Counted from the first letter of the stretch, positions 5,191-43,468 are shown. The stretch is 43,468 bases of DNA from Promethearchaeota archaeon (GCA_016839745.1 JAEOTS010000147.1:1-43468), one strand, 5' to 3'. The notes: generated by a model not told the origin, from the sequence alone. Numbers and translations are program-made.

Positions 5191-6744
5191 TTGATTTTAA
5201 TGACTAAAATAAAATTTGAGGATCTGCCTCATCAGCAACAACAAGATGCTATTTTAAATACCGATGTTAGGAATAGATTAGTAAAACGAAATCGATTCTT
5301 GAAGAGGGAACCTGAGGACGAAGCACTCCCTCTATTCCTGGAAATTCAGCATATGTTACCTCAACCTATTTGGGACGGTCATCAAGATGTTTTAGATTGT
5401 TATTGGAAAACGTGGGAACTTGGCTTTTCAAAGTTAAAGAAACCAGAACCTGGGAGCGGTTTTATTACTAATTTTATCGATACTGCGCTCAATACAGATG
5501 TTTTTATGTGGGACTCTGCCTTTATTGTAATGTTTGGCCGCTATGGATCCAGCGCATTTAATTTTCAAAAAACTCTTGATAATTTTTACTCGCATCAACA
5601 TCCTGACGGATACATCTGTCGACAAATCAGACGAAAAGATGGAGCAGAACGCCACACGAAATTTGAAGTAAGCAGTACAGGACCTAATATCCTTCCATGG
5701 GCGGAATGGGAGTATTTTCTAAATTCAGGTGACCTAGAACGTTTAGCCGATGTTTTTTATCCTCTCTTGGCGTATTATCAATGGTTTCGAAGGTGGCGTA
5801 GTTGGCAAAATGGGACGTATTTTTCGTCAGGATGGGGTTGTGGAATGGACAATCAACCTCGACTTCCCGTCATGAATACTGATCGGTTTTGGTTACATGG
5901 TCACATGTCTTGGATTGATACGACATTACAGCAAATTTTTGCAGGTTCAATCTTAATCAAAATGGCGGAGGTATTAGACGAGCTAAAAAAGGTTAAGGAT
6001 ATCGAGATCGAAATCAGTGAATTAAGCACCTTCGTAAATAATAATATGTGGGACGAAACCAGCTCCTTTTATTACGATCGCTTTAAAGATGGTACTTTAT
6101 CAGATGTGAAAACGATTGGGGCCTATTGGGCATTGTTGGCGGACATCGTTCCAAAAGAGAGAATTTCCGCATTTATTGAACATCTCAGGATTACGAAAGA
6201 ATTTAATCGCCCACACAGAGTCCCATCATTGTCCGCTGATCATAAGTCTTATTACCCCAAAGGTGCTTATTGGCTAGGTGGCGTATGGACTCCTACAAAT
6301 TACATGGTATTGCGAGGTTTAAATCTCGTTGGAGAGAATGCTCTAGCACACGAAATTGCTCTCAATCACTTGGATAATGTAGTTCATGTTTATAATGAAA
6401 CAAAGACTGTTTGGGAGAATTACGCTCCAGAAAGTAAAACCCCCGGAAGTACTGCTAAAGACGACTTCGTAGGTTGGACGGGATTAGCCCCTATTAGCGT
6501 TTTATTCGAAAATGTATTTGGTATTTGCCCGAATGTTCCTAATAATCAGATTTTTTGGGATGTTCGCCTCCTAGAAAGGCACGGAATAAAAAATTACCCT
6601 TTTGGTCAAAAAAGTTTAATAGATTTAGAATGTGAAGCTCGAAAAGATCCTTTCGAAGAAGTCCAAATAAAAGCAACATCTACTATGCCAGTTTCATTAA
6701 TACTTAAATGGAAGGGGGGAAATAAAGAAATAACTATAGTATAA
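5191..6744 (+). CDS. MGH1/trehalase-like (alpha/alpha)6 glycoside hydrolase (GH63/GH37-like)
   Basis: FMWDSAF, GMDNQPR, YWLGGVWTPTNY and WENYAPE motifs. ATG at 5200 is an alternative start. Confidence 0.8.
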   Translation: MILMTKIKFEDLPHQQQQDAILNTDVRNRLVKRNRFLKREPEDEALPLFLEIQHMLPQPIWDGHQDVLDCYWKTWELGFSKLKKPEPGSGFITNFIDTALNTDVFMWDSAFIVMFGRYGSSAFNFQKTLDNFYSHQHPDGYICRQIRRKDGAERHTKFEVSSTGPNILPWAEWEYFLNSGDLERLADVFYPLLAYYQWFRRWRSWQNGTYFSSGWGCGMDNQPRLPVMNTDRFWLHGHMSWIDTTLQQIFAGSILIKMAEVLDELKKVKDIEIEISELSTFVNNNMWDETSSFYYDRFKDGTLSDVKTIGAYWALLADIVPKERISAFIEHLRITKEFNRPHRVPSLSADHKSYYPKGAYWLGGVWTPTNYMVLRGLNLVGENALAHEIALNHLDNVVHVYNETKTVWENYAPESKTPGSTAKDDFVGWTGLAPISVLFENVFGICPNVPNNQIFWDVRLLERHGIKNYPFGQKSLIDLECEARKDPFEEVQIKATSTMPVSLILKWKGGNKEITIV

Positions 6745-33152: not shown

Positions 33153-33923
33153 TTAAATAACTCTCGGGTCCAGATACGGTGTTTTAGAATAAATAATTTT
33201 GGTATTCTTTTTCCTTAACTCTTCCATTAAATTCTCTTCGGTTTTATCCTTTAAATTAAGCAGAGTCCATCCATGTACACCACCACTTATTAAGCCATCT
33301 GGTTTGTGCATATCTGTTCCTGTAATCATCCCGATTTTTCTATTGTGCTTTAGGCAGAAATTATGTGACTTTTGATCAAAATTATTTTCTGGTTGTGAAT
33401 CATCATTAACAATCTCAATATAATCTACTCCCCAGTCTAAAATCTTCTCCCGTGTTGGATGATTTTTGTAGTGCGCTTCATGAATACTCCATGGAATATG
33501 ATTACAGACGACTATGCCCCCTTGATCATGGGCTTTGTTAATTGCTTCGATAATCTTTTCGTCTTTAGGTTTATAAGGTATTCTTGTATCCCATTTTGAC
33601 ACACCTATAAAATTTAAATGAAGTCTAGTGGTTGTCCATTCAATGCCACTAGTTATAAGGATGCCTTTTTCAACATATTCTTCTTTTATTTTGTTGATTT
33701 TTTCTAAATGCCGCATATTGTTATGATCAGTTATGGTTAAGGCGTTGAAGCCCATAGCAATGTGCCATTCAATATTTTGCTTAATTGTAAGCTTTCCATC
33801 ACTGAAGTTCGTGTGAGAATGATGATCATAAATCAAATTATAAGCTGTTTTGTCATATCCAGGGGCCACATGAGGTTTAACATTTTTCCAGTCATTATCA
33901 GAGTAAGCGCTTGATAAAGGCAT
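33153..33923 (-). CDS. PHP-domain metallophosphoesterase
   Basis: DHHSHTNFSDG, ITDHN, GIEWTT, CNHIPW, GTDMH. Confidence 0.88.
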   Translation of the reverse strand: MPLSSAYSDNDWKNVKPHVAPGYDKTAYNLIYDHHSHTNFSDGKLTIKQNIEWHIAMGFNALTITDHNNMRHLEKINKIKEEYVEKGILITSGIEWTTTRLHLNFIGVSKWDTRIPYKPKDEKIIEAINKAHDQGGIVVCNHIPWSIHEAHYKNHPTREKILDWGVDYIEIVNDDSQPENNFDQKSHNFCLKHNRKIGMITGTDMHKPDGLISGGVHGWTLLNLKDKTEENLMEELRKKNTKIIYSKTPYLDPRVI

Positions 33924-33940
33924 TATCTTATCTAATCCTA

Positions 33941-34726
33941 TTAAAACATTCTATTATGTAGTTCTTTTACAAAATATGTTGCTACATTTTCAGAAAAAGT
34001 GTTAGGGCCAAAACCAGCATCATATCCTAATTCTTTCGCAAGTTCGTTTGAGATCCTAGGACCACCGCAAATTAGCACGATTTTATCTCTTATCTCTTCA
34101 GCTTCTAGTAGATCGACTAGATTGGTTAAATTTCTCACATGAATATCTTTCTGAGTTACAGTTTGAGAGACAAGAAGCACATCGGCATTCAAATCTAATG
34201 CTTTTTTTACGAAAACTTCGTTTGAAACTTGACTACCAAGATTATAAGCTTCAATCATTTCGTATCTTTCTAATCCATAATGCCCGGCGAACCCCTTTCT
34301 ATTCATGATCGCATCAATACCAACTGTGTGTGCATCTGTACCAGTTGTCGCGCCTATAATTATTAATTTTCGATTCAATTTTGTTTTAATGTAGTCATCT
34401 ATTTCTTCCATCGTCATAGCTTTTGTTACAATAGATTCAACTTTTATTTTAGTATAATCAATTGAGTGTTTAAGACTTCCATATAGCACGAAATATGTGT
34501 ATCCCTTATCTAAAGGTACACGATATGCTACTGAGGGTTCTTCTATCCCCATCTTTTTGGAAAGTTCTAATGCTGCAAATAAAGCTTTTTCTCCGTCATC
34601 TACAGGAAGAGTGAAACTAATTTGAATCTTTCCATCGTTCATCGTATCTCCGTAAGGTTTGATTTTAGTTAGATCCAAATTCTTGTCAAATTCTTTCTTT
34701 TCTGTAGAATACTGTCCACCACCCAT
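33941..34726 (-). CDS. kamE: Lysine 5,6-aminomutase beta subunit (B12-binding)
   Basis: KPYGDTMNDGKIQISFTLP, DAHTVGIDA (DxHxxG), KGFAGHYGLERY, VSQTVTQKD. Confidence 0.96.
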   Translation of the reverse strand: MGGGQYSTEKKEFDKNLDLTKIKPYGDTMNDGKIQISFTLPVDDGEKALFAALELSKKMGIEEPSVAYRVPLDKGYTYFVLYGSLKHSIDYTKIKVESIVTKAMTMEEIDDYIKTKLNRKLIIIGATTGTDAHTVGIDAIMNRKGFAGHYGLERYEMIEAYNLGSQVSNEVFVKKALDLNADVLLVSQTVTQKDIHVRNLTNLVDLLEAEEIRDKIVLICGGPRISNELAKELGYDAGFGPNTFSENVATYFVKELHNRMF

Positions 34727-36294
34727 TAATTCTCGCCCCCTAAGTTCAATTCTTTTGACATGATTTCCAAGAAGGGGTTAAAATATTTGTTGCTTTTGAG
34801 AATAACGCCGTCTAATCCTTTCCCACCACCAATTGGTCTTTTTATCTGTGCGAAGATCCCTTTTTCAATTGTCTTGAATAACCCTTCCTTTTCAATCTTG
34901 GTTAGAAGTTCAAGAGCTTTATTTAATACTTCGCTTGCGCGTTGCTGTATTATTCCCCCTTCCTTAAATGTGATCTCGTCTCCTAAATCTTTCATATTTT
35001 TAAAAATATAACGCGCGTTTTCAATGGATAAAGCCCGATCTGACATGAATGGTGTGTGAATTGCTTCCGTTAACATTCCTAGTAGGTGAATTCTCTGGTT
35101 TGTGAGGATAGTAATAATGTTAAACAATGCATCTTGTACGTGACCTTTAAAGATGTTTCCCGTCATGTATTTTGTAGGGGGCATGTATTTTAACGGAACA
35201 TTTGGGAAAATTTCTCGAGCCATTTGCGCTTGGGCGAGTTCAAAGATGAAACCATTCTCCAAATCAGGATTCATCTCAAATGCATGTCCTAAACCCATTT
35301 GCTCTTCACTTAATCCGGCTAATTTGGCAAATTGCTCGTTAATGAATTGCGATGCGAGTACTGTATGTGCCGCTTCATACGCGTCATCTGTGGTAAGATA
35401 ATTGTCCTCGCCAGTATTGATAATTGCACCTGCATAAGCATTTATCATCCTTGAAAAATGTTGATCAACCATCGTTCTTTGCATGTTTATATCCCGAAAT
35501 AAAATTCCATACAACGCATCGTTTAGCATCATATCAACTCTCTCGAAAGCGCCCATGGCAGCAATTTCGGGCATACAAAGTCCCGAACAATAATTAGTGA
35601 GTCTTATATATCTACCTTCTTCTTTACTCACTTCATCTAAAGCGGACCTCATTAGACGGAAATTTTCTTGAGTGGCATAAGTCCCTCCAAAACCTTCTGA
35701 TGTGGATCCATAAGGCACATAATCTAATAAACTCTGCCCCGTAGATCTTATTACCGCAATGACATCTGCACCTTGTCTTGCTGCAGCTTTTGCTTGAACA
35801 ACATCCTCAAAAATATTACCAGTAGCAACAATTAGATAAATTAACGGTTCACCTTTTTCCCCGTAAGTATGAATTAATTCTTCTCTGTTTTGTTTGTTTC
35901 GCTTGATAATATTCAGATTTTTCTGAATTATAGAGGATAAAGAATTTTTTATTTCGTTGACGTTGTCTAAAGGATGCTCTGTCATGTTTAATTGTTCTTG
36001 AGAGACCATTTCTGCAATATTTTGGGGCGATTTATGAGTATGCAAAATAGTATTTCCAAGGTATAGAGCAATACCATTATTAAGTAATCCTGATTGTTGA
36101 ACGTGATCTACTACAATATTGGGTAATGGTACTCCAAATTCATCAACCCCATCGATCCCTAATAATCTACAAATAGTTCTTTCAATTGTAGTAGTCGTGT
36201 GTTTATCTATAAACTTTTGCGTATCGATAACTATATTTCTCGCTATTTTTCTCGCACTTTCTACTATTTTAAAATCCAAATTTAATTTATTCAT
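34726..36294 (-). CDS. kamD: Lysine 5,6-aminomutase alpha subunit
   Basis: IVATGNIFEDVVQA, RSTGQSLLDYVPYG, NYCSGLCMPE, YMPPTKYMTG, GMLTEAIHTP. Confidence 0.96.
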   Translation of the reverse strand: MNKLNLDFKIVESARKIARNIVIDTQKFIDKHTTTTIERTICRLLGIDGVDEFGVPLPNIVVDHVQQSGLLNNGIALYLGNTILHTHKSPQNIAEMVSQEQLNMTEHPLDNVNEIKNSLSSIIQKNLNIIKRNKQNREELIHTYGEKGEPLIYLIVATGNIFEDVVQAKAAARQGADVIAVIRSTGQSLLDYVPYGSTSEGFGGTYATQENFRLMRSALDEVSKEEGRYIRLTNYCSGLCMPEIAAMGAFERVDMMLNDALYGILFRDINMQRTMVDQHFSRMINAYAGAIINTGEDNYLTTDDAYEAAHTVLASQFINEQFAKLAGLSEEQMGLGHAFEMNPDLENGFIFELAQAQMAREIFPNVPLKYMPPTKYMTGNIFKGHVQDALFNIITILTNQRIHLLGMLTEAIHTPFMSDRALSIENARYIFKNMKDLGDEITFKEGGIIQQRASEVLNKALELLTKIEKEGLFKTIEKGIFAQIKRPIGGGKGLDGVILKSNKYFNPFLEIMSKELNLGGEN

Positions 36295-36341
36295 GTGAAC
36301 TTCATCTCTAAAGATAATTTTAATAATCTAATGTCTAAATT

Positions 36342-36353
36342 ATAAGTTGTCAC
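36342..36353. repeat. Left 12-bp direct repeat ATAAGTTGTCAC (insertion boundary)
   Basis: Identical to 41206-41217 in the last codons of kamB. Confidence 0.8.
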
Positions 36354-36785
36354 TAAAAAAAATTAAAAAAAAATTACTGAGGAGTGCATTCAAACTTCTT
36401 TCCGTTAATTCTGTTAATGTGTTGATCGTTTATTCATTTTTTTTACTTTTTTGCTTCCTAGCGATTTTTTTGTTGCGATTAAATAATATCCGTGAGTCAT
36501 TTTTTATCATTATCCTAATCTTTGATCTGAAAATTCTATTAGGAATTATTTACCGATTTACTTCATTTGTAAATAAGGTTACTCATCTTCCATTTCATCA
36601 ATATCTTTTTGACATTCTTCACATATAAAAAATATAGAGAAATTCCAGAAATGTGTTGCTAATATATCCCGTTATTTCCTTCCTAACGGAAAATAACCCC
36701 ATAACCAATATTTTATTAAATTAGGTGGCCATTTTACTTTAATCCGTTTAGCACAGATAACGCAATATATTTTACACATAATTAC

Positions 36786-37073
36786 TCAATCGTCTTTTAC
36801 TGTCTTATTTTTATTTAATATCCTTTCACGGTATAAATCTTTCTGTTCCCTTTTTTCTGCTTCTGAAAGGTTTTCAGACGCATCAAATTTTTCTATAACC
36901 GTTGTCAAAAGAATTTCTACCTCATTATCCTCTCTGCGATAAATATGAAGATCTCGACCCAAACTTCCAAATACATAATTGAGTAGAAACTGTCCAAGCC
37001 TCTGATCAGGATAACGACTCCAAGCTCGCTCCAGCAATTGGCAAACCCTTTTAATCCTTTTAGGATCTCTCAT
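36786..37073 (-). CDS. Small hypothetical protein, MRDPxRI...W..PDxRLGQ family (DUF1040/YihD-like, often seen in phages)
   Basis: MRDPKRIKRVCQLLERAWSRYPDQRLGQFLLN. Family recognised from memory. Confidence 0.7.
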   Translation of the reverse strand: MRDPKRIKRVCQLLERAWSRYPDQRLGQFLLNYVFGSLGRDLHIYRREDNEVEILLTTVIEKFDASENLSEAEKREQKDLYRERILNKNKTVKDD

Positions 37074-37204
37074 ATTAATTATTAATATTTATTAAGTTAT
37101 TTAATTTATAGTCTGATTTGACAATCTGATTTGTAATGATGATAACCTCAAATCATTTTTATATAATATTTTAAATTTTTGAATTCAAAAGTTGATAAAA
37201 TATA

Positions 37205-37834
37205 TTATTCCAAATCCTTTTCTTTTCTAACCTGATTGATTCGTAAAATAACAGATACATGAGTTAGAATTGAAATTGAAATTAAGCATACTGGAATTGC
37301 CCAATCTGTAAAAAATGCACAAATTCCTGCTAAAAACACAAGAAATAGCCTTGTGTCTCGTCCTTGAATTGTTCTGGAAAAATTAATACCTTCTTTTAAC
37401 TCTACTTTAGCGGCAGTATAACTTATTGAATAGGCTCCTATAATAGTAATTATTCCTAATAAAAAAGCATGTGTAATCAAAAGGACATTAAGAGAGTAAA
37501 ATGTAAGGCCTAAAAATATAAAAACATCAACATATCGATCCATTACAGAGTCAAAGAAACCCCCAAAAAAAGAAGTTCTCCCATTGGCACGGGCTACTTC
37601 CCCATCAGAACCATCAATGATACTTGATATTTGGACAAGGATTCCTCCCATAATAGGAAAATTCATACAAAATAATATTGAACTGATAATCCCAGTTAAA
37701 GCTGATATAATAGATATTAAATTTGGGTTACAATTTGGCCAAAAATACAGAATTAAACTTGTTAATGGACGAGAAAAGTGTCTGTTTATGTATTTTGAAA
37801 CCAGACCATCTCCTTTTGCTGGCATTTCTCTCAA
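37205..37834 (-). CDS. CDP-alcohol phosphotransferase, di-myo-inositol-phosphate-phosphate synthase (DIPPS)-type
   Basis: GDGLVSKYINRHFS, PNLIS, QISSIIDGSDGEVARANGRTSFFGGFFDSVMDRYVD, GRDTRLF, resembling the DIPPS domain of archaeal IPCT/DIPPS. Confidence 0.85.
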   Translation of the reverse strand: MREMPAKGDGLVSKYINRHFSRPLTSLILYFWPNCNPNLISIISALTGIISSILFCMNFPIMGGILVQISSIIDGSDGEVARANGRTSFFGGFFDSVMDRYVDVFIFLGLTFYSLNVLLITHAFLLGIITIIGAYSISYTAAKVELKEGINFSRTIQGRDTRLFLVFLAGICAFFTDWAIPVCLISISILTHVSVILRINQVRKEKDLE

Positions 37835-37903
37835 TTATTTACTTATAATATTATTTATTTAGGATTACTAAAATTTTATTGGATTTAATATCTTTATGAT
37901 CGT

Positions 37904-38710
37904 GTGATAGGAATTTCAATTCGTGCTAATTGGGATTTTGAAAAATTTTTAAATTCAATAATAGACTTGAATATTGATTTCTGTGAAATTCAGCTAGATA
38001 ATCCCATATTTAAATTCCAAAAGCATCAAAGCAAAGCTAAAAAACTTATTGCTAAGCTATATTCAAAAAACTTACAACTTTCATTCCATTTATCATTTAT
38101 TGATTTAAATATTGCTTCATTAGATAATAAAATACGGTGTTATTCAAGTGAAATACTGAGAAAAGAAATAGAGCTTATAAAAACATGGAAACCTCTTTAT
38201 GTTGTTGTACATACTGGAAAGATTAGTGAAACTTTTTATAATATCCCTTCAATAAAAGAACAGGCTCATAAACAACAAATTAAAACAATATCAGAATTAA
38301 TAAAAACCTCTAGCTCTTATTCAATACCATTTGCGATTGAAAACCGGCAAAAATCATTAACAAGTGGTTTGATTGAAAAATTAAGTGATATTCGGTATTA
38401 CAATTGTATTTTCCCTTCTTTATGCTTCTTACTTGACATAGGACACCTTAATACCTTTTATCTTGACTCTAACGCATTGATAGAAGATATTAAACTTATT
38501 TGTAATTTCCCTACAGTTGGAATTCACTTATCAAACAATTTTGGGAAAGATACACACGGAATTTTAGAAGAGGGAACAATTCCTTATATAAAATTGTTTT
38601 CTAAAGTACAAAATCTAAAAAACACACACCTAATAATTGAAAATAGATCATTGAAAGACACTTTACAAAGTTTAGATTTTTTATATAATAAAGTTATAGG
38701 AAAAACATAA
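37904..38710 (+). CDS. Sugar phosphate isomerase/epimerase (xylose isomerase-like / AP endonuclease 2 TIM barrel)
   Basis: SFHLSFIDLNIAS, VVHTG, AIEN, LDIGH, IHLSNNFGKDTH, LIIE. Confidence 0.82.
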   Translation: MIGISIRANWDFEKFLNSIIDLNIDFCEIQLDNPIFKFQKHQSKAKKLIAKLYSKNLQLSFHLSFIDLNIASLDNKIRCYSSEILRKEIELIKTWKPLYVVVHTGKISETFYNIPSIKEQAHKQQIKTISELIKTSSSYSIPFAIENRQKSLTSGLIEKLSDIRYYNCIFPSLCFLLDIGHLNTFYLDSNALIEDIKLICNFPTVGIHLSNNFGKDTHGILEEGTIPYIKLFSKVQNLKNTHLIIENRSLKDTLQSLDFLYNKVIGKT

Positions 38711-38986
38711 TAAAATATATTACAAATAAAAAATCCCTTTTTTATTTAAATTATTATTGTTAAAACAACTTCTTCTTTATTCTAATTAAATTTTTTTTTT
38801 AACTTGTTAAATTAAAACTAAAACTTATATAATTTTTAATCTTATTAGAATTACAAGTGAATAAGTAATTTAAATATGAAAGAATTTTAAAAATGTTTTT
38901 GTAGATTTTTAGAAATATAAAGAGTAATGTTTTGCGATTATATTTACTTGGTTATGGTAAAAATCATCAACAAGAAGTAAATTTTT

Positions 38987-39143
38987 GAAATTTCAGTAAT
39001 CTTAATCATTTTCCTTATCTACAATTTATAAAGAGGATTATAGTGATAGATAATAATAAATTAGAAATTTCAGTAATCTTAATCATTTTCCTTATCTACA
39101 ATTTATAAAGAGGATTATAGTGATAGATAATAATAAATTAGAA
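38987..39143. repeat. 77-bp perfect tandem duplication spanning the RBS and first codons of the IPCT gene
   Basis: 38987-39063 = 39064-39140, plus trailing GAA. Confidence 0.95.
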
Positions 39144-39938
39144 GGTTTAATTCTAGCAGCGGGTTATTCTAGCCGATTTGAATTTAAAGATAATAGATTT
39201 AAAAAGTATTTTTTAAAATTAAATGATTCGAATATTTTAGGATATATTATCGCTGGTATGAGTAAAACAGGAATAAAAAAAATAAAGATAGTGACAAGTG
39301 AAATATTTAACAAATTAAAACATAAAAAAAGGGTATTTAAATCTGTAGCTCGATCAGGAATTGATCTAAAAAATCTTGAATTATCTTTTATTGAAAATAA
39401 GATACCAGAGAGAGAAAATGGATACAGCCTTTTTTTAGGTCTTAATACAATTTCCTCAGAATATACTATACTTACGATGGCTGATCATATTTTTTCAAAA
39501 AATGTTTTTTCTAAAATGATAAAGAACTATAAAAAAAAAGATATTCTTTTAGCAACTGATCCAATGGATAATAAAGGATATTACGACAAGGAGGATGCTA
39601 CAAAAGTATATGGAGAAAATTCTTTTATTATTAAAATTGGAAAGGATTTAATGAATTATAACCGATTAGATATGGGAGTATTTATTTTGAAGACTAAAAA
39701 AATTAAAAAAATTAGTAAGGAAGTTGAATCCAATTTTCGTAAATTTGGTGTGTCAGACATTGTTAGATCAGCATTAAATTCAGATTTAAATATTGGTTAT
39801 TCTGATTTTCCGAATACAATTTGGCTAGATATTGATGATCATAAAAAATATCGTCAATTAAAAAGACTTTTTAATAAAACTTCTAGCCTTCATCCTTTTG
39901 CTCTTAACACGAAACCTACTGTGGTGAATTATTATTAG
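39120..39938 (+). CDS. CTP:inositol-1-phosphate cytidylyltransferase (IPCT)-like nucleotidyltransferase
   Basis: ILAAGYSSRF, PERENGYSL, LTMADHIFS, DATKV, KIGKDL, DMGVF, WLDID. Adjacent to inositol-phosphate synthase. Confidence 0.83.
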   Translation: MIDNNKLEGLILAAGYSSRFEFKDNRFKKYFLKLNDSNILGYIIAGMSKTGIKKIKIVTSEIFNKLKHKKRVFKSVARSGIDLKNLELSFIENKIPERENGYSLFLGLNTISSEYTILTMADHIFSKNVFSKMIKNYKKKDILLATDPMDNKGYYDKEDATKVYGENSFIIKIGKDLMNYNRLDMGVFILKTKKIKKISKEVESNFRKFGVSDIVRSALNSDLNIGYSDFPNTIWLDIDDHKKYRQLKRLFNKTSSLHPFALNTKPTVVNYY

Positions 39939-41088
39939 TAAAATTAAAATTGCTATTGTTGGACTTGGTAATTGTGCTTGTGCTTTAATTCAAGGAATCC
40001 AATTTTATAGAAATAAAACGAACAAGGATGCTATTGGCCTAATGCATTGGGATATTGGTGGATATTTGCCAAGCGACATTGAAGTTGTTGCAGCTTTTGA
40101 TATAGACCGTAGGAAAGTTGGAATAGATGTATCGATAGCTATTTTTCAACCACCCAATTGTTCTAAAATATTTTGTAAAGATATCCCCAAAACGAAAGTT
40201 ATTGTTAAAATGGGTAAAATTTTAGATAGTTATGCAGATCATATGAATTATTACAATAAAGAATATACATTTATTTTATCTGATCAAAAAGAATCAACGC
40301 AAGAAGAAATAATTCAAGAATTAAAAACTTCAAAAGCAGATATCCTTATAAATTATCTTCCAGTAGGCTCTGAAAAAGCGGCTAAATTTTATACGGAATG
40401 TGCTTTAAAAGCAAAAGTAGGTTTCATTAACTGTATGCCTGTTTTCATTGCGAGCAATCCAATATGGGCTGAGAAATTTAAAAGGGATAACATACCAATA
40501 ATTGGTGATGATATTAAGTCTCAATTGGGAGCAACAATAGTCCACCGAGTATTGACAAATCTTTTTAAAAAACGAGGTGTAAAACTCATGCGTACATATC
40601 AACTTAATACTGGTGGGAACACAGATTTCTTAAACATGCTTGATAGACACAGACTCGCTTCGAAAAAACAATCAAAAACCGAAGCTGTTCAATCACAAAC
40701 AAAAACTAGATTGAAAAATGAAAATATTCATATCGGTCCAAGTGATTGGGTTCCATGGCAAAGAGACAATAAGATATGCTTTATTAGAATGGAGGGAAAC
40801 ATATTTGGCGACATTCCAATAGATATCGAATTACGCCTTTCGGTAGAAGATTCTCCTAATTCTGCGGGAGTGGTTATTGATGCTATAAGATGTATAAAGT
40901 TGGCTCTGGATAGAAATCACGGTGGTGTTTTATATAATCCTTCTTCATACTTTATGAAACATCCACCAATACAATATAGTGATGATGAAGCATTTCAACT
41001 GACAGAAGAATTTATAAATGTTTTCTCAGGAGCAAAAGTTTCTTTAATTGATAAAATGATTAAACAAAATGAACAAAGTGCCGATTAA
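39934..41088 (+). CDS. ino1: myo-Inositol-1(3)-phosphate synthase, non-canonical ATT start
   Basis: NYLPVGS, GDDIKSQLGAT, YQLNTGGNTDFLNM, SKTEAV, VEDSPNSAG. The frame extends upstream of ATG 40042 through SKIKIAIVGLGNCA to ATT codons after GGTGA. Confidence 0.92.
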   Translation: MSKIKIAIVGLGNCACALIQGIQFYRNKTNKDAIGLMHWDIGGYLPSDIEVVAAFDIDRRKVGIDVSIAIFQPPNCSKIFCKDIPKTKVIVKMGKILDSYADHMNYYNKEYTFILSDQKESTQEEIIQELKTSKADILINYLPVGSEKAAKFYTECALKAKVGFINCMPVFIASNPIWAEKFKRDNIPIIGDDIKSQLGATIVHRVLTNLFKKRGVKLMRTYQLNTGGNTDFLNMLDRHRLASKKQSKTEAVQSQTKTRLKNENIHIGPSDWVPWQRDNKICFIRMEGNIFGDIPIDIELRLSVEDSPNSAGVVIDAIRCIKLALDRNHGGVLYNPSSYFMKHPPIQYSDDEAFQLTEEFINVFSGAKVSLIDKMIKQNEQSAD

Positions 41089-41197
41089 TAACTTTAGGAA
41101 AATTTGGATTCTTATTCCACCAAGAAGAATAGCAGTACCATAAATATAATGGCTCTTTTACTTCTATTAGAAGTTAGAGTCTAAAAGGTAGTGCACC

Positions 41198-42256
41198 TTA
41201 AAGGCATAAGTTGTCACAAGGACCAAGATTGAATATAGGAACGTTAATTCTCTCTTGTAATGACCTTATGAACTGGTTATTTTCAAATTCATACCCGAGT
41301 GGTGAAGTGTGATTAATTGTAATTGCAATTAAATTAATTCGATCTAGTACCTTTAAGCAACCCCCCTTTTTTATAAATTTATGGAAAACTTGCTTACTAA
41401 TAAATAATTTAGTAGGATCTGTGGCGATTACAGTTAAATTTTTTACTTTTTTATTGGATATGTATTCATCTAAAATGCTATCGGTAATCGCTCCCTTTAT
41501 TACCAGGTATTTAGTGCCTTTTGTTAATTGGTTAAAAATTACTTTAGACGATCCTAAAGCCGTAGATTCTCCTAACTTATTAAACGAATCATCATCATTT
41601 ATAATTCCTACCTTAGCAGTGAGCAAGATTTCGTTACTGATTTTTCTGATTTTATCGTCCTTAACCAACTCTAAGCTAAACAAATTGTAAATATGGGATG
41701 TTAAATCGACAACCCTTTCCATGTTTCTGGACACAGAAGCTCCCGTAGATAGGATGGTTGCATCAGAAATAATTGGCGTTGCAAACGATCTTCTATCAAA
41801 TGCACCATCGATAAAAATCACTTCGCAACCTACTTCTTTCATATCGTTACATAATTCCTTTAATTGTTTATTCATTGATGGGCCTGCTAGCTCAATATAT
41901 CCTTTATTCTTTGCTTTGTAAATGTTGATGTTCCCAAGTGGCGTAGTGAAATCAGTATTTTTAACAAATTCGGTTTCTATATCGCTATTCTTCAATGATT
42001 GCTCTGCTGTTGCAAAAATTGTTCCCTTTTCAATTATTATCTTAGGTTTTGGAAGTTCTGTAATCGCATCGTAAGGTTCTCCATCTCGACCAATGGAAGT
42101 TACTCCAATTGTATGCTTCTCCCTTAACAGATTAATAATGTGATTTAATGTGGTGGTTTTACTTACATTTTTAGCTAAACCAATAATTGATATGACCTTA
42201 TACTGCTTAATAGCATTTATTAAAAGAGCAGGAAATTCTTCATTGCCAGACAACAT
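41198..42256 (-). CDS. kamB: Lysine 5,6-aminomutase reactivase-associated protein KamB-like
   Basis: SIIGLAKNVSKTTTLN, TSIGRDGE, PKP, TPLG, AGPS, IDGAFDR, STGAS. Directly downstream of kamA. Confidence 0.8.
   Translation of the reverse strand: MLSGNEEFPALLINAIKQYKVISIIGLAKNVSKTTTLNHIINLLREKHTIGVTSIGRDGEPYDAITELPKPKIIIEKGTIFATAEQSLKNSDIETEFVKNTDFTTPLGNINIYKAKNKGYIELAGPSMNKQLKELCNDMKEVGCEVIFIDGAFDRRSFATPIISDATILSTGASVSRNMERVVDLTSHIYNLFSLELVKDDKIRKISNEILLTAKVGIINDDDSFNKLGESTALGSSKVIFNQLTKGTKYLVIKGAITDSILDEYISNKKVKNLTVIATDPTKLFISKQVFHKFIKKGGCLKVLDRINLIAITINHTSPLGYEFENNQFIRSLQERINVPIFNLGPCDNLCL
41206..41217. repeat. Right 12-bp direct repeat ATAAGTTGTCAC (insertion boundary)
   Basis: Identical to 36342-36353. 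Confidence 0.8.
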
Positions 42257-42375
42257 CTGTGTTTCAAATAATTAAAGGAGGATATGATTTTAAAGTATGT
42301 CAAATTAACATTTCCACAGATTTAAAATTTTATTAAAGATCTCTTTAAGCGTTTCAGTAAAAAGGTTTAAAACTT

Positions 42376-43468
42376 TTATTTGCTAAGTTTTTTCCTTCTT
42401 AAATTTCTTTCAAGATCCTCAGGTTCTATAGTCATTTTTTGGCCACTTAACAAAGCAGAAACTCCGATTTGTTGTTCGCAATCTTCGCAATGACACTCTG
42501 GTATATAGTTCGTGGGTTCTTCGTAGGTTGTAATAACACCTTCAAAATTCCTTAAGACAACTCTAGTATTTCCTTGTGAGATGGTATAATCGGGCATCAC
42601 GGGTATTTTACCTCCACCACCTGGGGCGTCAACAACATAGGTAGGAACGCACAAACCTGATGTGTGGCCTCTTAATCCTTCGATAATTTCGATTCCTTGT
42701 GCCACACTTGTCCTGAAATGTCCTAATCCTACGGATAAATCGCACTGGTAAATGTAATATGGACGAACTCTAATTTTTACCAGTTCGTGTACTAACTTTT
42801 TCATTACATGTATGCAGTCATTTACTCCCCGTAATAAGACTGATTGATTTCCAAGGGGAATCCCAGCATTTGCGAGCATTTCACATGCCCTTGTAGAATC
42901 TTCAGTTATCTCGTTCGGATGGTTAAAGTGGGTATTAAACCATATAGGATGATATTGTTGAAGCATTTCACATAGATCAGGAGTAATTCGTTGAGGCATA
43001 ACAACGGGGCTTCTTGATCCTAGTCTAATGATTTCTACATGAGGGATTTCCTTTAAACTTATTAAAACATTCTCTAACAATTTATCAGAAATAAGCATAG
43101 CGTCTCCCCCAGATAACAAAACATCTCTAATTGAGGGCGTTTCTTGGATATAGTCTATACATTTATCTATCTGATCTTTTGGAGGTGCCTTATCGTGGTG
43201 ACCCGCGAACCGTCTTCGAGTACAGTGTCTGCAGTACATCGAACAGTTTTCCGTTACTAAAAATAATACTCGATCTGGGTATCTATGAGTTAAACCGGGA
43301 GTAGGACTATCAACGTCTTCGTGAAGTGGATCATCTAAATCAGCGGGATATCTTATAAGCTCGTGAATTGTAGGAATTGCTTGTTTACGAATTGGGTCGT
43401 ATGGATCGTGGGGATCGATTAAGGATAAGTAATAAGGGGTGATAGCCATTCTCATCTTTTCCATAATA
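42376..43468 (-). CDS. kamA: L-lysine 2,3-aminomutase (radical SAM, PLP), 5' end beyond the window
   Basis: [46 protein letters not shown], Zn-binding CHCEDC. Frame open to the window edge. Confidence 0.96.

Follow-up and report, generated by a model that had tools for sequence, protein, structure and literature searches.

The stretch of DNA analyzed here, referred to as the window, is one whole contig of 43,468 nucleotides from a Promethearchaeota archaeon (GCA_016839745.1, JAEOTS010000147.1:1-43468), whose assembled genome amounts to 3.5 Mb and is 89% complete. An earlier note had described within it, at positions 37205 to 41088, a CDP-inositol module in which an Ino1, an IPCT-like cytidylyltransferase, and a DIPPS-type CDP-alcohol phosphotransferase cluster together, with IPCT and DIPPS unfused, nonadjacent, on opposite strands, and separated by a TIM-barrel gene. 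All four gene families and this layout are confirmed, and the islet is composed as follows:

37205-37834 (likely gene 37205-37825), minus strand: CDP-alcohol phosphotransferase of the DIPPS clade, 206 aa (PF01066, CDP-OH_P_transf)
37835-37903, no strand: divergent intergenic region of 69 nt between the transferase and TIM-barrel genes (from the coordinates)
37904-38710, plus strand: MJ1311-like TIM barrel, a proposed phosphoesterase and candidate phosphatase of DIPP, the phosphorylated form of di-myo-inositol phosphate (DIP) (PF01261, AP_endonuc_2, xylose-isomerase-like)
39120-39938, plus strand: IPCT-family cytidylyltransferase, 272 aa (NTP_transf_3/NTP_transferase; IPCT half of NF041135)
40042-41088, plus strand: myo-inositol-1-phosphate synthase (INO1/MIPS) of a bacterial-like type B (PF01658, Inos-1-P_synth)

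The transferase probably starts at the ATG at 37825, which yields a protein of 206 aa, the same size as its orthologs. Clustering of the four genes is not due to chance, because the set recurs within ~6 kb in 13 of 14 related Asgard species loci; in the 14th (L015), the sequence ends 75 nt from the transferase. The 13 related loci with both genes all show the divergent pairing of transferase and TIM barrel, 66 to 82 nt separating the aligned ends, and the IPCT-INO1 pair occurs in two arrangements, either adjoining the TIM-barrel gene or sitting a few kilobases beyond the transferase. No Rfam family matched in window positions 36000 to 41400. The nearest relatives of every islet gene come from metagenome-assembled genomes (MAGs) titled Promethearchaeota, Promethearchaeia, or Hodarchaeota, which identifies the host as an Asgard archaeon, as had been presumed, and as one of the Lokiarchaeia type; the kam genes that flank the islet share 83 to 86% DNA identity with genomes of the same genus.

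The cytidylyltransferase scores 110 bits on the IPCT half of NF041135, against 28 bits for the next family, and its best matches in the Protein Data Bank (PDB) are the Thermotoga maritima IPCT 4jd0 (63.5 bits), 2xme (51 bits), and 4mnd (50 bits) (Archaeoglobus fulgidus), followed by a glucose-1-phosphate thymidylyltransferase at an E value of 0.066. When aligned with the N-terminal domains of fused IPCT/DIPPS proteins, it keeps the motifs AAG..R, ENGYS, MADH, ATKV, IGK, DxGxF, and WxDID. These relatives and motifs mark the nucleotidyltransferase as IPCT-like and not phosphocholine-type. Its gene lies directly upstream of INO1 wherever both are in the available sequence (11 of 13 loci with an IPCT match).

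INO1 itself scores 124.4 bits on PF01658 (cut-off, 27) and 384 bits on TIGR03450, under the mycothiol-specific cut-off of 638. In full-length matches, it shares 60 to 70% identity with the INO1 proteins of bacterial INO1-IPCT/transferase operons and 25 to 30% with those of loci from anaerobic methanotrophic archaea (ANME) and Thermoproteota. Across 135 genomes of the Lokiarchaeial family, two types of INO1 are found: type A, at ~77 bits on PF01658, is nearly universal, and type B, at ~120 bits, is the islet type, which is accessory, bacterial-like, and tied to an IPCT-like gene. Both types are present in 11 of the 14 other family genomes that have the transferase (e.g., G188, G178, G216, G194, and G248), the remainder showing only the islet type in incomplete assemblies. 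A dedicated second INO1 is the expected companion of a high-flux solute pathway.

The transferase has a complete D1xxD2GxxAR...GxxxD3xxxD4 signature, with D71, D74, G75, A78, R79, G88, D92, and D96 invariant across 20 family members. Its best match in the PDB is the A. fulgidus IPCT/DIPPS (4mnd; 82 bits), followed by AF2299 (63 bits) and the PIP synthases (36 to 38 bits). NCBIfam scores are ambiguous, at 127.9 bits for the DIPPS half of NF041135 versus 118 bits for NF040950, the model for archaetidylinositol-phosphate synthase (AIPS); the former model describes the fused protein of Thermococcales, which puts its cut-off of 580 bits out of reach for an unfused half, and the latter score is under the AIPS cut-off of 180 bits. 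Six PF01066 paralogs are encoded in the source genome, three of which outscore the transferase on the AIPS model (161, 156, and 137 bits), and CarS is also present.

We placed the transferase among 80 related loci from species-representative genomes, further Asgard loci, and relatives from Archaeoglobus, Aquificota, and Rhodothermia. Two trees, a quick one with 109 rows and a careful one with 82 (IQ-TREE, LG+C20+F+G4 PMSF, with UFBoot/SH-aLRT support), agree. All IPCT-linked enzymes form one clade (74 rows), parted from AIPS-like sequences at 100/99, and the transferase therein does not group with the archaetidylinositol-phosphate synthases. Within this clade, it falls in an Asgard-only group of 21 rows (97/95). 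The sister group of these Asgard rows (94/90) unites a very large bacterial fused clade with sequences from Archaeoglobi, Aquificota, and ANME, and outside both branches the clade of Thermoproteota (Desulfurococcales, Pyrodictiaceae, and Thermofilaceae). Two members of the Archaeoglobi group, L118 and L092, score 494 and 454 bits against 4mnd and serve in the tree as proxies for the characterized A. fulgidus DIPPS. A degenerate pattern derived from the 4mnd peptide matched only an uncultured Archaeoglobi-like MAG, and scans seeded with the protein of this MAG and with bacterial fused proteins gave no record of A. fulgidus, T. maritima, or Rhodothermus marinus. None of the 120 listed clusters, of at least 3746 bacterial fused clusters, is named for R. 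marinus. Because lineages with known DIP producers flank the Asgard clade on both sides, a DIPPS-type ancestor of its transferases is the most economical inference from the tree.

Residue patterns are in line with this placement. Eight residues shared by DIPPS and missing from AIPS-like rows (D6, G7, N14, R15, Q65, S68, E76, and D157) are all kept, and the transferase has the juxtamembrane DGxxSxxxNR motif that marks the IPCT-linked clade and is absent from AIPS-like rows. Besides a juxtamembrane helix, the protein has three double-length hydrophobic blocks, which we read as six predicted transmembrane (TM) helices with no extra ones; such a minimal build has been tied to soluble acceptors in CDP-alcohol phosphotransferases (PMC4634129). 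Also kept are R195 and an RxxR motif, at the positions of the two acceptor-phosphate arginines of PIP synthases (PMC4634129); they would fit a phosphorylated acceptor. As a means of telling DIPPS from lipid enzymes, these arginines proved uninformative, being kept in every clade, AIPS-like rows included. Around the pocket, the Asgard clade differs from the others at several positions, e.g., F86 (mostly K/R or acidic in others) and A138 (H in the Thermoproteota clade). An IPCT-family match stands beside the transferase in ~85 of 96 tabulated loci across archaea and bacteria.

The TIM barrel had been taken for an isomerase/epimerase-like protein that might yield an epimerised inositol phosphodiester, and the islet had been said to contain no dedicated phosphatase; the metal site of the protein points elsewhere. 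Both by sequence (55 bits) and by fold (TM-score of 0.78 to 0.80), the best PDB match is MJ1311 (3wqo), an uncharacterized protein deposited as "D-tagatose 3-epimerase-like protein"; the AF2 model of the islet protein has a pLDDT of 91. The fold search by itself did not part epimerase from phosphoesterase, both kinds being among the matches. An alignment of 17 Asgard members has 19 invariant columns. Of these, H62, H103, E146, D178, and H181 align with H69, H109, E145, D179, and H182 of Escherichia coli endonuclease IV (Nfo), and H208, D216, H218, and E246 align with Nfo H216, D229, H231, and E261, all nine being invariant in the 17 members. We take these nine Nfo residues, whose numbering matched exactly, to be the ligands of the trinuclear zinc site. 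Five of the ligands lie beyond the single-metal E-D-H-E site of the epimerases and are invariant in the Asgard family, and the nearest sugar epimerase in the PDB, 8xix, is without histidine at the positions of H62 and H103, both of which are present in MJ1311 and the Asgard family. Because the nine endonuclease IV ligands are kept and this epimerase lacks two of the equivalents, the TIM barrel is probably a metal-dependent phosphoesterase and not an isomerase or epimerase; given the trinuclear site, the remark that a phosphatase is missing is probably wrong.

This protein is tightly coupled to the transferase. At ≥280 bits on its profile, the TIM family occurs in 24 of 400 Asgard genomes, and an Asgard-clade transferase is present in 24 of these 24; the two genes adjoin wherever coordinates were compared. 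A family-profile search found the TIM neighbor in 21 loci, all of the Asgard clade, and in 0 of 64 non-Asgard DIPPS-like loci. The sole exception at the family level is G204, whose contig ends 75 nt away from the transferase. Weaker MJ1311-like paralogs (144 to 230 bits) occur elsewhere without a transferase. In three loci (L093, L099, and L100), the TIM-barrel gene comes after the transferase in the same orientation, and only in L093 is there an IPCT match upstream, so that IPCT, transferase, and TIM barrel stand in a row. Because a CDP-alcohol phosphotransferase acting on a phosphorylated acceptor leaves a phosphomonoester to remove, the TIM barrel is probably the DIPP phosphatase. A comparable pairing is known from the Bacteroides thetaiotaomicron inositol-lipid cluster BT_1522/23/25, in which the PIP synthase BT_1523 is clustered with the PIP phosphatase BT_1525 (PMC9246714).

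That the module was acquired, as the earlier note had proposed, is evident from its boundaries. The islet entered the source genome as a 4864-bp insert, for which an empty site exists in sister species, and its extent and further features are as follows:

36342-36353, no strand: left copy of a 12-bp direct repeat (ATAAGTTGTCAC), the left end of the 4864-bp insert (empty-site comparison)
41206-41217, no strand: right copy of the 12-bp direct repeat, the right end of the insert, at the kamB stop codon (empty-site comparison)
36786-37073, minus strand: orf95, a small, strain-specific open reading frame (ORF) inside the insert (no Pfam match)
38987-39143, plus strand: perfect 77-bp tandem duplication over a TATA-like box and the first eight IPCT codons (2.0 copies, 100% match)

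Two genomes of the same genus without the transferase (G247 and G249) have an uninterrupted kamA-kamB-kamD-kamE order with a kamB/kamD gap of 52 nt, and their DNA aligns with window positions 33166 to 36353 and from 41206 onward; each empty site has a single copy of the repeat that flanks the insert on both sides. The insertion hits the kamB stop codon and thereby lengthens KamB by two residues. Logan contigs of sequencing runs X1 and X3 span the left junction (35800-37346), and one of run X3 spans the right junction (40956-41800). In runs from a cold seep (X6) and a marine sediment (X9), which belong to two other studies, a 95 to 99% identical islet runs into different flanks, and both runs also contain the empty kamB-kamD site. 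We conclude that the islet was recently inserted and is a mobile accessory unit moving between Lokiarchaeia genera. No mobility gene is recognizable within the insert, and no paralog or repeat of the insert flanks was found elsewhere in the source genome.

The lysine-fermentation cluster that the islet splits occupies window positions 33153 to 36294 and 41198 to 43464 and consists of kamA (lysine 2,3-aminomutase), kamB (5,6-aminomutase reactivase), kamD and kamE (lysine 5,6-aminomutase alpha and beta), and a gene for a PHP-domain protein; it is syntenic with the genomes of the same genus, at the DNA identity given above. The insertion may separate kamD and kamE from the kamA/kamB promoter.

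Two parts of the insert vary between strains. The related loci in runs X6 and X9 skip ~630 to 750 bp around orf95, with joints in the cold-seep relatives running from 36412, 36438, or 36569 to 37167-37199. No copy of orf95 was found in any related locus or elsewhere in the source genome; the only lead to its identity is a YihD/DUF1040-like Atlas score of 0.90. The 77-bp duplication is real and strain-specific, since runs X1 and X3 cover the unit at twice the depth and the cold-seep relative of X6 has one copy. It copies a TATA-like box (TTTATAAA), creating a second copy of the promoter and an upstream ORF of 21 codons.

Carriage of the transferase is sporadic: it is present in 2 of 42 species of the source genus, in 13 of 54 of a neighboring genus, and in 2 of 22 of one more distant family (56 to 57% identity), with more divergent members of the Asgard clade scattered across other Asgard families. 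The runs that contain the islet are marine-sediment, cold-seep, or subsurface metagenomes (eight studies), a habitat that argues against a thermophilic host and for a cold-sediment mesophile or psychrophile; no RNA data set with the islet was listed among the public runs. A literature search found no publication that connects CDP-inositol or DIP with Asgard archaea. Other IPCT/DIPPS-like sequences from Asgard genomes lie outside the Asgard clade: L098 (genome G120) and L101 (G116) group with Chloroflexota rows near the base, L102 (G291) and L103 (G295) are inside the Thermoproteota clade, and L106 (G126), a fused form of 519 aa, is inside the bacterial clade. The tree suggests that such genes were acquired several times independently in Asgard lineages.

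Taken together, we read the islet as a self-contained pathway to a DIP-type soluble inositol phosphodiester, equipped with a new phosphatase and carried by a nonthermophile, a reading to which we give a probability of roughly 0.55. Going by family membership, INO1 would convert glucose-6-phosphate to L-myo-inositol-1-phosphate, and the IPCT-family enzyme, which is also constantly linked to INO1, would combine this product with CTP to give CDP-inositol. The six-TM transferase would then move the inositol-phosphate group from CDP-inositol onto a phosphorylated alcohol, likely a second inositol-1-phosphate, to give DIPP; CDP-inositol as the donor is well supported, and the acceptor is inferred. 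Last, the MJ1311-like TIM barrel, by means of its trinuclear metal center, would strip the remaining phosphate to release the final solute, a new role for an orphan family. The whole would represent an accessory trait of nonthermophilic sediment Lokiarchaeia that entered this genome through a 4.86-kb insertion at the kamB end.

Several observations weigh against this pathway. DIP is classically a solute of thermophiles, and the source organism lives in cold sediments. The Asgard transferases stand on their own stem, inside neither the Archaeoglobi DIPPS group nor the Thermoproteota group, such that their acceptor may have changed. The acceptor-phosphate arginines do not discriminate, since they are also conserved in the large bacterial fused clade, some of whose members may be CDP-inositol:lipid transferases. 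The source genome shows only the type B INO1 (owing to loss or to a gap in the 89% complete assembly), and the islet enzyme may there feed lipid synthesis as well. With regard to the TIM barrel, the four metal ligands of sugar epimerases are a subset of the nine, which leaves some room for isomerase chemistry; moreover, to our knowledge, the known trinuclear AP_endonuc_2 enzymes (endonuclease IV and CbiR) are phosphodiesterases, not monoesterases.

The separate stem of the Asgard clade, its unique TIM-barrel partner, and pocket-region differences such as F86 and A138 would also suit a different soluble or cell-surface inositol phosphodiester, in which CDP-inositol is joined to glycerol phosphate (yielding glycerophosphoinositol), a sugar, a glycan, or a polymer, and in which the TIM barrel, acting as phosphomono- or phosphodiesterase, completes or remodels the product. 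Variation in substrate has precedent in the solved relative AF2299, which takes other CDP-alcohols, such as CDP-glycerol (PMC4634129). We nonetheless consider such a product unlikely: inositol-1-phosphate is the sole alcohol phosphate made in the islet, and it is simplest as both donor precursor and acceptor, and the loci examined show no linked glycerol-phosphate or glycan gene.

More doubtful still is a reversed-activation (Kennedy-like) route to an inositol ether lipid, in which CDP-inositol would be transferred to archaeol or another lipid alcohol, as by BEPIS of R. marinus. The islet INO1 resembles that of the bacterial INO1-IPCT/transferase operons, and the bacterial clade concerned, with a Rhodothermia MAG among its members, may be that of BEPIS (PMC4587543); furthermore, no other INO1 was seen in the source genome. 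However, the transferase lies outside the bacterial fused clade and has only six TM helices, its tight coupling to a phosphoesterase would be needless for an unphosphorylated lipid acceptor, CarS and three better AIPS candidates are already in the genome, and the housekeeping INO1 is retained in most of the other transferase-bearing family genomes (11 of 14). A lipid route is thus less likely than synthesis of a DIP-type solute. Finally, a plain AIPS (CDP-archaeol plus inositol-1-phosphate), with the TIM barrel as phosphatase of its product and an unrelated nucleotidyltransferase nearby, is very improbable: its near-equal NF040950 score (118 versus 128 bits) and a phosphatase partner that fits equally well are outweighed by the 100/99 split from AIPS-like sequences, a score below the cut-off with three paralogs higher, the clade-specific residues of CDP-inositol users, and the IPCT-family matches beside the transferase in most tabulated loci.

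A second arrangement of related genes exists in the same family. As many as 24 further genomes of the Lokiarchaeial family encode an IPCT-like ortholog but no islet-type transferase, and in 8 of 10 such loci, the IPCT-like gene is followed by a gene that we call X, which in 7 of the 8 stands between the IPCT-like gene and the type B INO1. Gene X is found at the following positions:

L212, 4706-6106
L213, 6522-7883
L214, 6790-8208
L215, 7040-8452
L216, 6845-8206
L218, 6321-7676
L219, 6673-8043
L220, 7456-8775

Its product, of ~455 aa, comprises an N-terminal domain of 255 aa without an assigned identity and a C-terminal CDP-OH_P_transf domain; AF2299 is the best PDB match (29 bits), and the D3/D4 part of the motif looks altered (...AGHIEHSFDQ...). 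A remnant of X is present in L211, and there is no X in L217 or in the 103-nt gap in the window. The IPCT-X-INO1 operon appears to be a second CDP-inositol system, which occurs alongside the islet in G228 and G194. Elsewhere in the window, an ORF at 5191-6744 on the plus strand contains a mannosylglycerate hydrolase MGH1-like/GH63 domain and could be a further compatible-solute gene on the same contig.

In broader terms, we tentatively, and with less than even confidence, envisage an Asgard-specific CDP-inositol chemistry, in which a distinct DIPPS-family transferase and an MJ1311-like TIM phosphoesterase of a new class would, in cold sediments under high pressure, produce DIP or a new inositol phosphodiester, spread by an islet without a recognizable mobility gene. 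DIP synthesis has so far been taken to indicate adaptation to hot marine environments. If our reading holds, DIP-type solutes are not markers of thermophily, and the MJ1311-like TIM barrel gains the first function for its orphan family; the strict transferase/TIM pairing offers a concrete, testable function for this structural-genomics orphan, as a candidate for the last step of the pathway. A conserved, mobile DIP-type module in Lokiarchaeia of cold seeps and marine sediments would add to the case of deep-sediment Thaumarchaeota, and its carriage in cold sediments points to another role for DIP, for instance an osmotic or pressure-related one or the long-term protection of proteins. Because the evidence favors a solute over a lipid route, any link to eukaryotic phosphoinositides or to eukaryote origins is weak, and its relevance is limited on present evidence; for Asgard inositol lipids, better candidates are the housekeeping INO1 present across the family and the AIPS-like paralogs.

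Among known systems, the closest is the IPCT/DIPPS pathway to DIP in (hyper)thermophiles (A. fulgidus AF0263; T. maritima IPCT), in which the same MIPS, IPCT, and DIPPS-type CDP-alcohol phosphotransferase are clustered, and whose transferase shares with that of the islet the CDP-alcohol phosphotransferase motif, the juxtamembrane DGxxSxxxNR helix, and the six-TM build. The known pathway ends with an IMPase-type phosphatase, whereas in the islet an MJ1311-like metal TIM barrel is the obligate neighbor. The islet differs further in that its genes are unfused and on opposite strands, its transferase belongs to a separate Asgard-only clade, and its host is a cold-sediment mesophile or psychrophile in which the module is a mobile accessory islet. 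What is new relative to known IPCT/DIPPS systems, then, is the Asgard-only transferase clade, the strict TIM-barrel pairing, the movement of a small islet between genera, and the occurrence in cold sediments.

The TIM barrel has its own set of relatives. MJ1311 of Methanocaldococcus jannaschii has the metal-ligand residues in common with it, at an identity of only ~23%, whereas association with the transferase is what defines the Asgard subfamily; no MIPS was found in M. jannaschii in a control search, so MJ1311 cannot act in an inositol pathway. Endonuclease IV shares the nine metal ligands at 20% identity, and, in the alignment, the Nfo insertions near residues 35 to 55 and 221 to 228 are gaps in the Asgard family; in contrast to that enzyme, the islet protein has no link to DNA repair, and its proposed substrate is a small phosphoester. 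The CbiR phosphodiesterase is the top, weak NCBIfam match (30 bits).

The IPCT/BEPIS route of R. marinus and a putative CDP-inositol lipid route of Bacteroidetes also combine INO1, IPCT, and a CDP-alcohol phosphotransferase (PMC4587543, PMC9246714). In contrast with these, the islet transferase is placed outside the bacterial fused clade (R. marinus being compared via the clade that holds the Rhodothermia MAG), and the islet has no HAD hydrolase and instead encodes a TIM-barrel candidate phosphoesterase. With respect to habitat, the nearest parallel comes from nonthermophilic deep-sediment Thaumarchaeota, in which ipct/dipps genes have been reported (PMC8397731) and where DIP-pathway genes in archaea of cold marine sediments were read as a means of osmolyte or stress-solute synthesis (PMC8397731). 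The thaumarchaeal genes are described there as bifunctional and fused, whereas those of the islet are split, belong to another clade, and are accompanied by a TIM-barrel partner.

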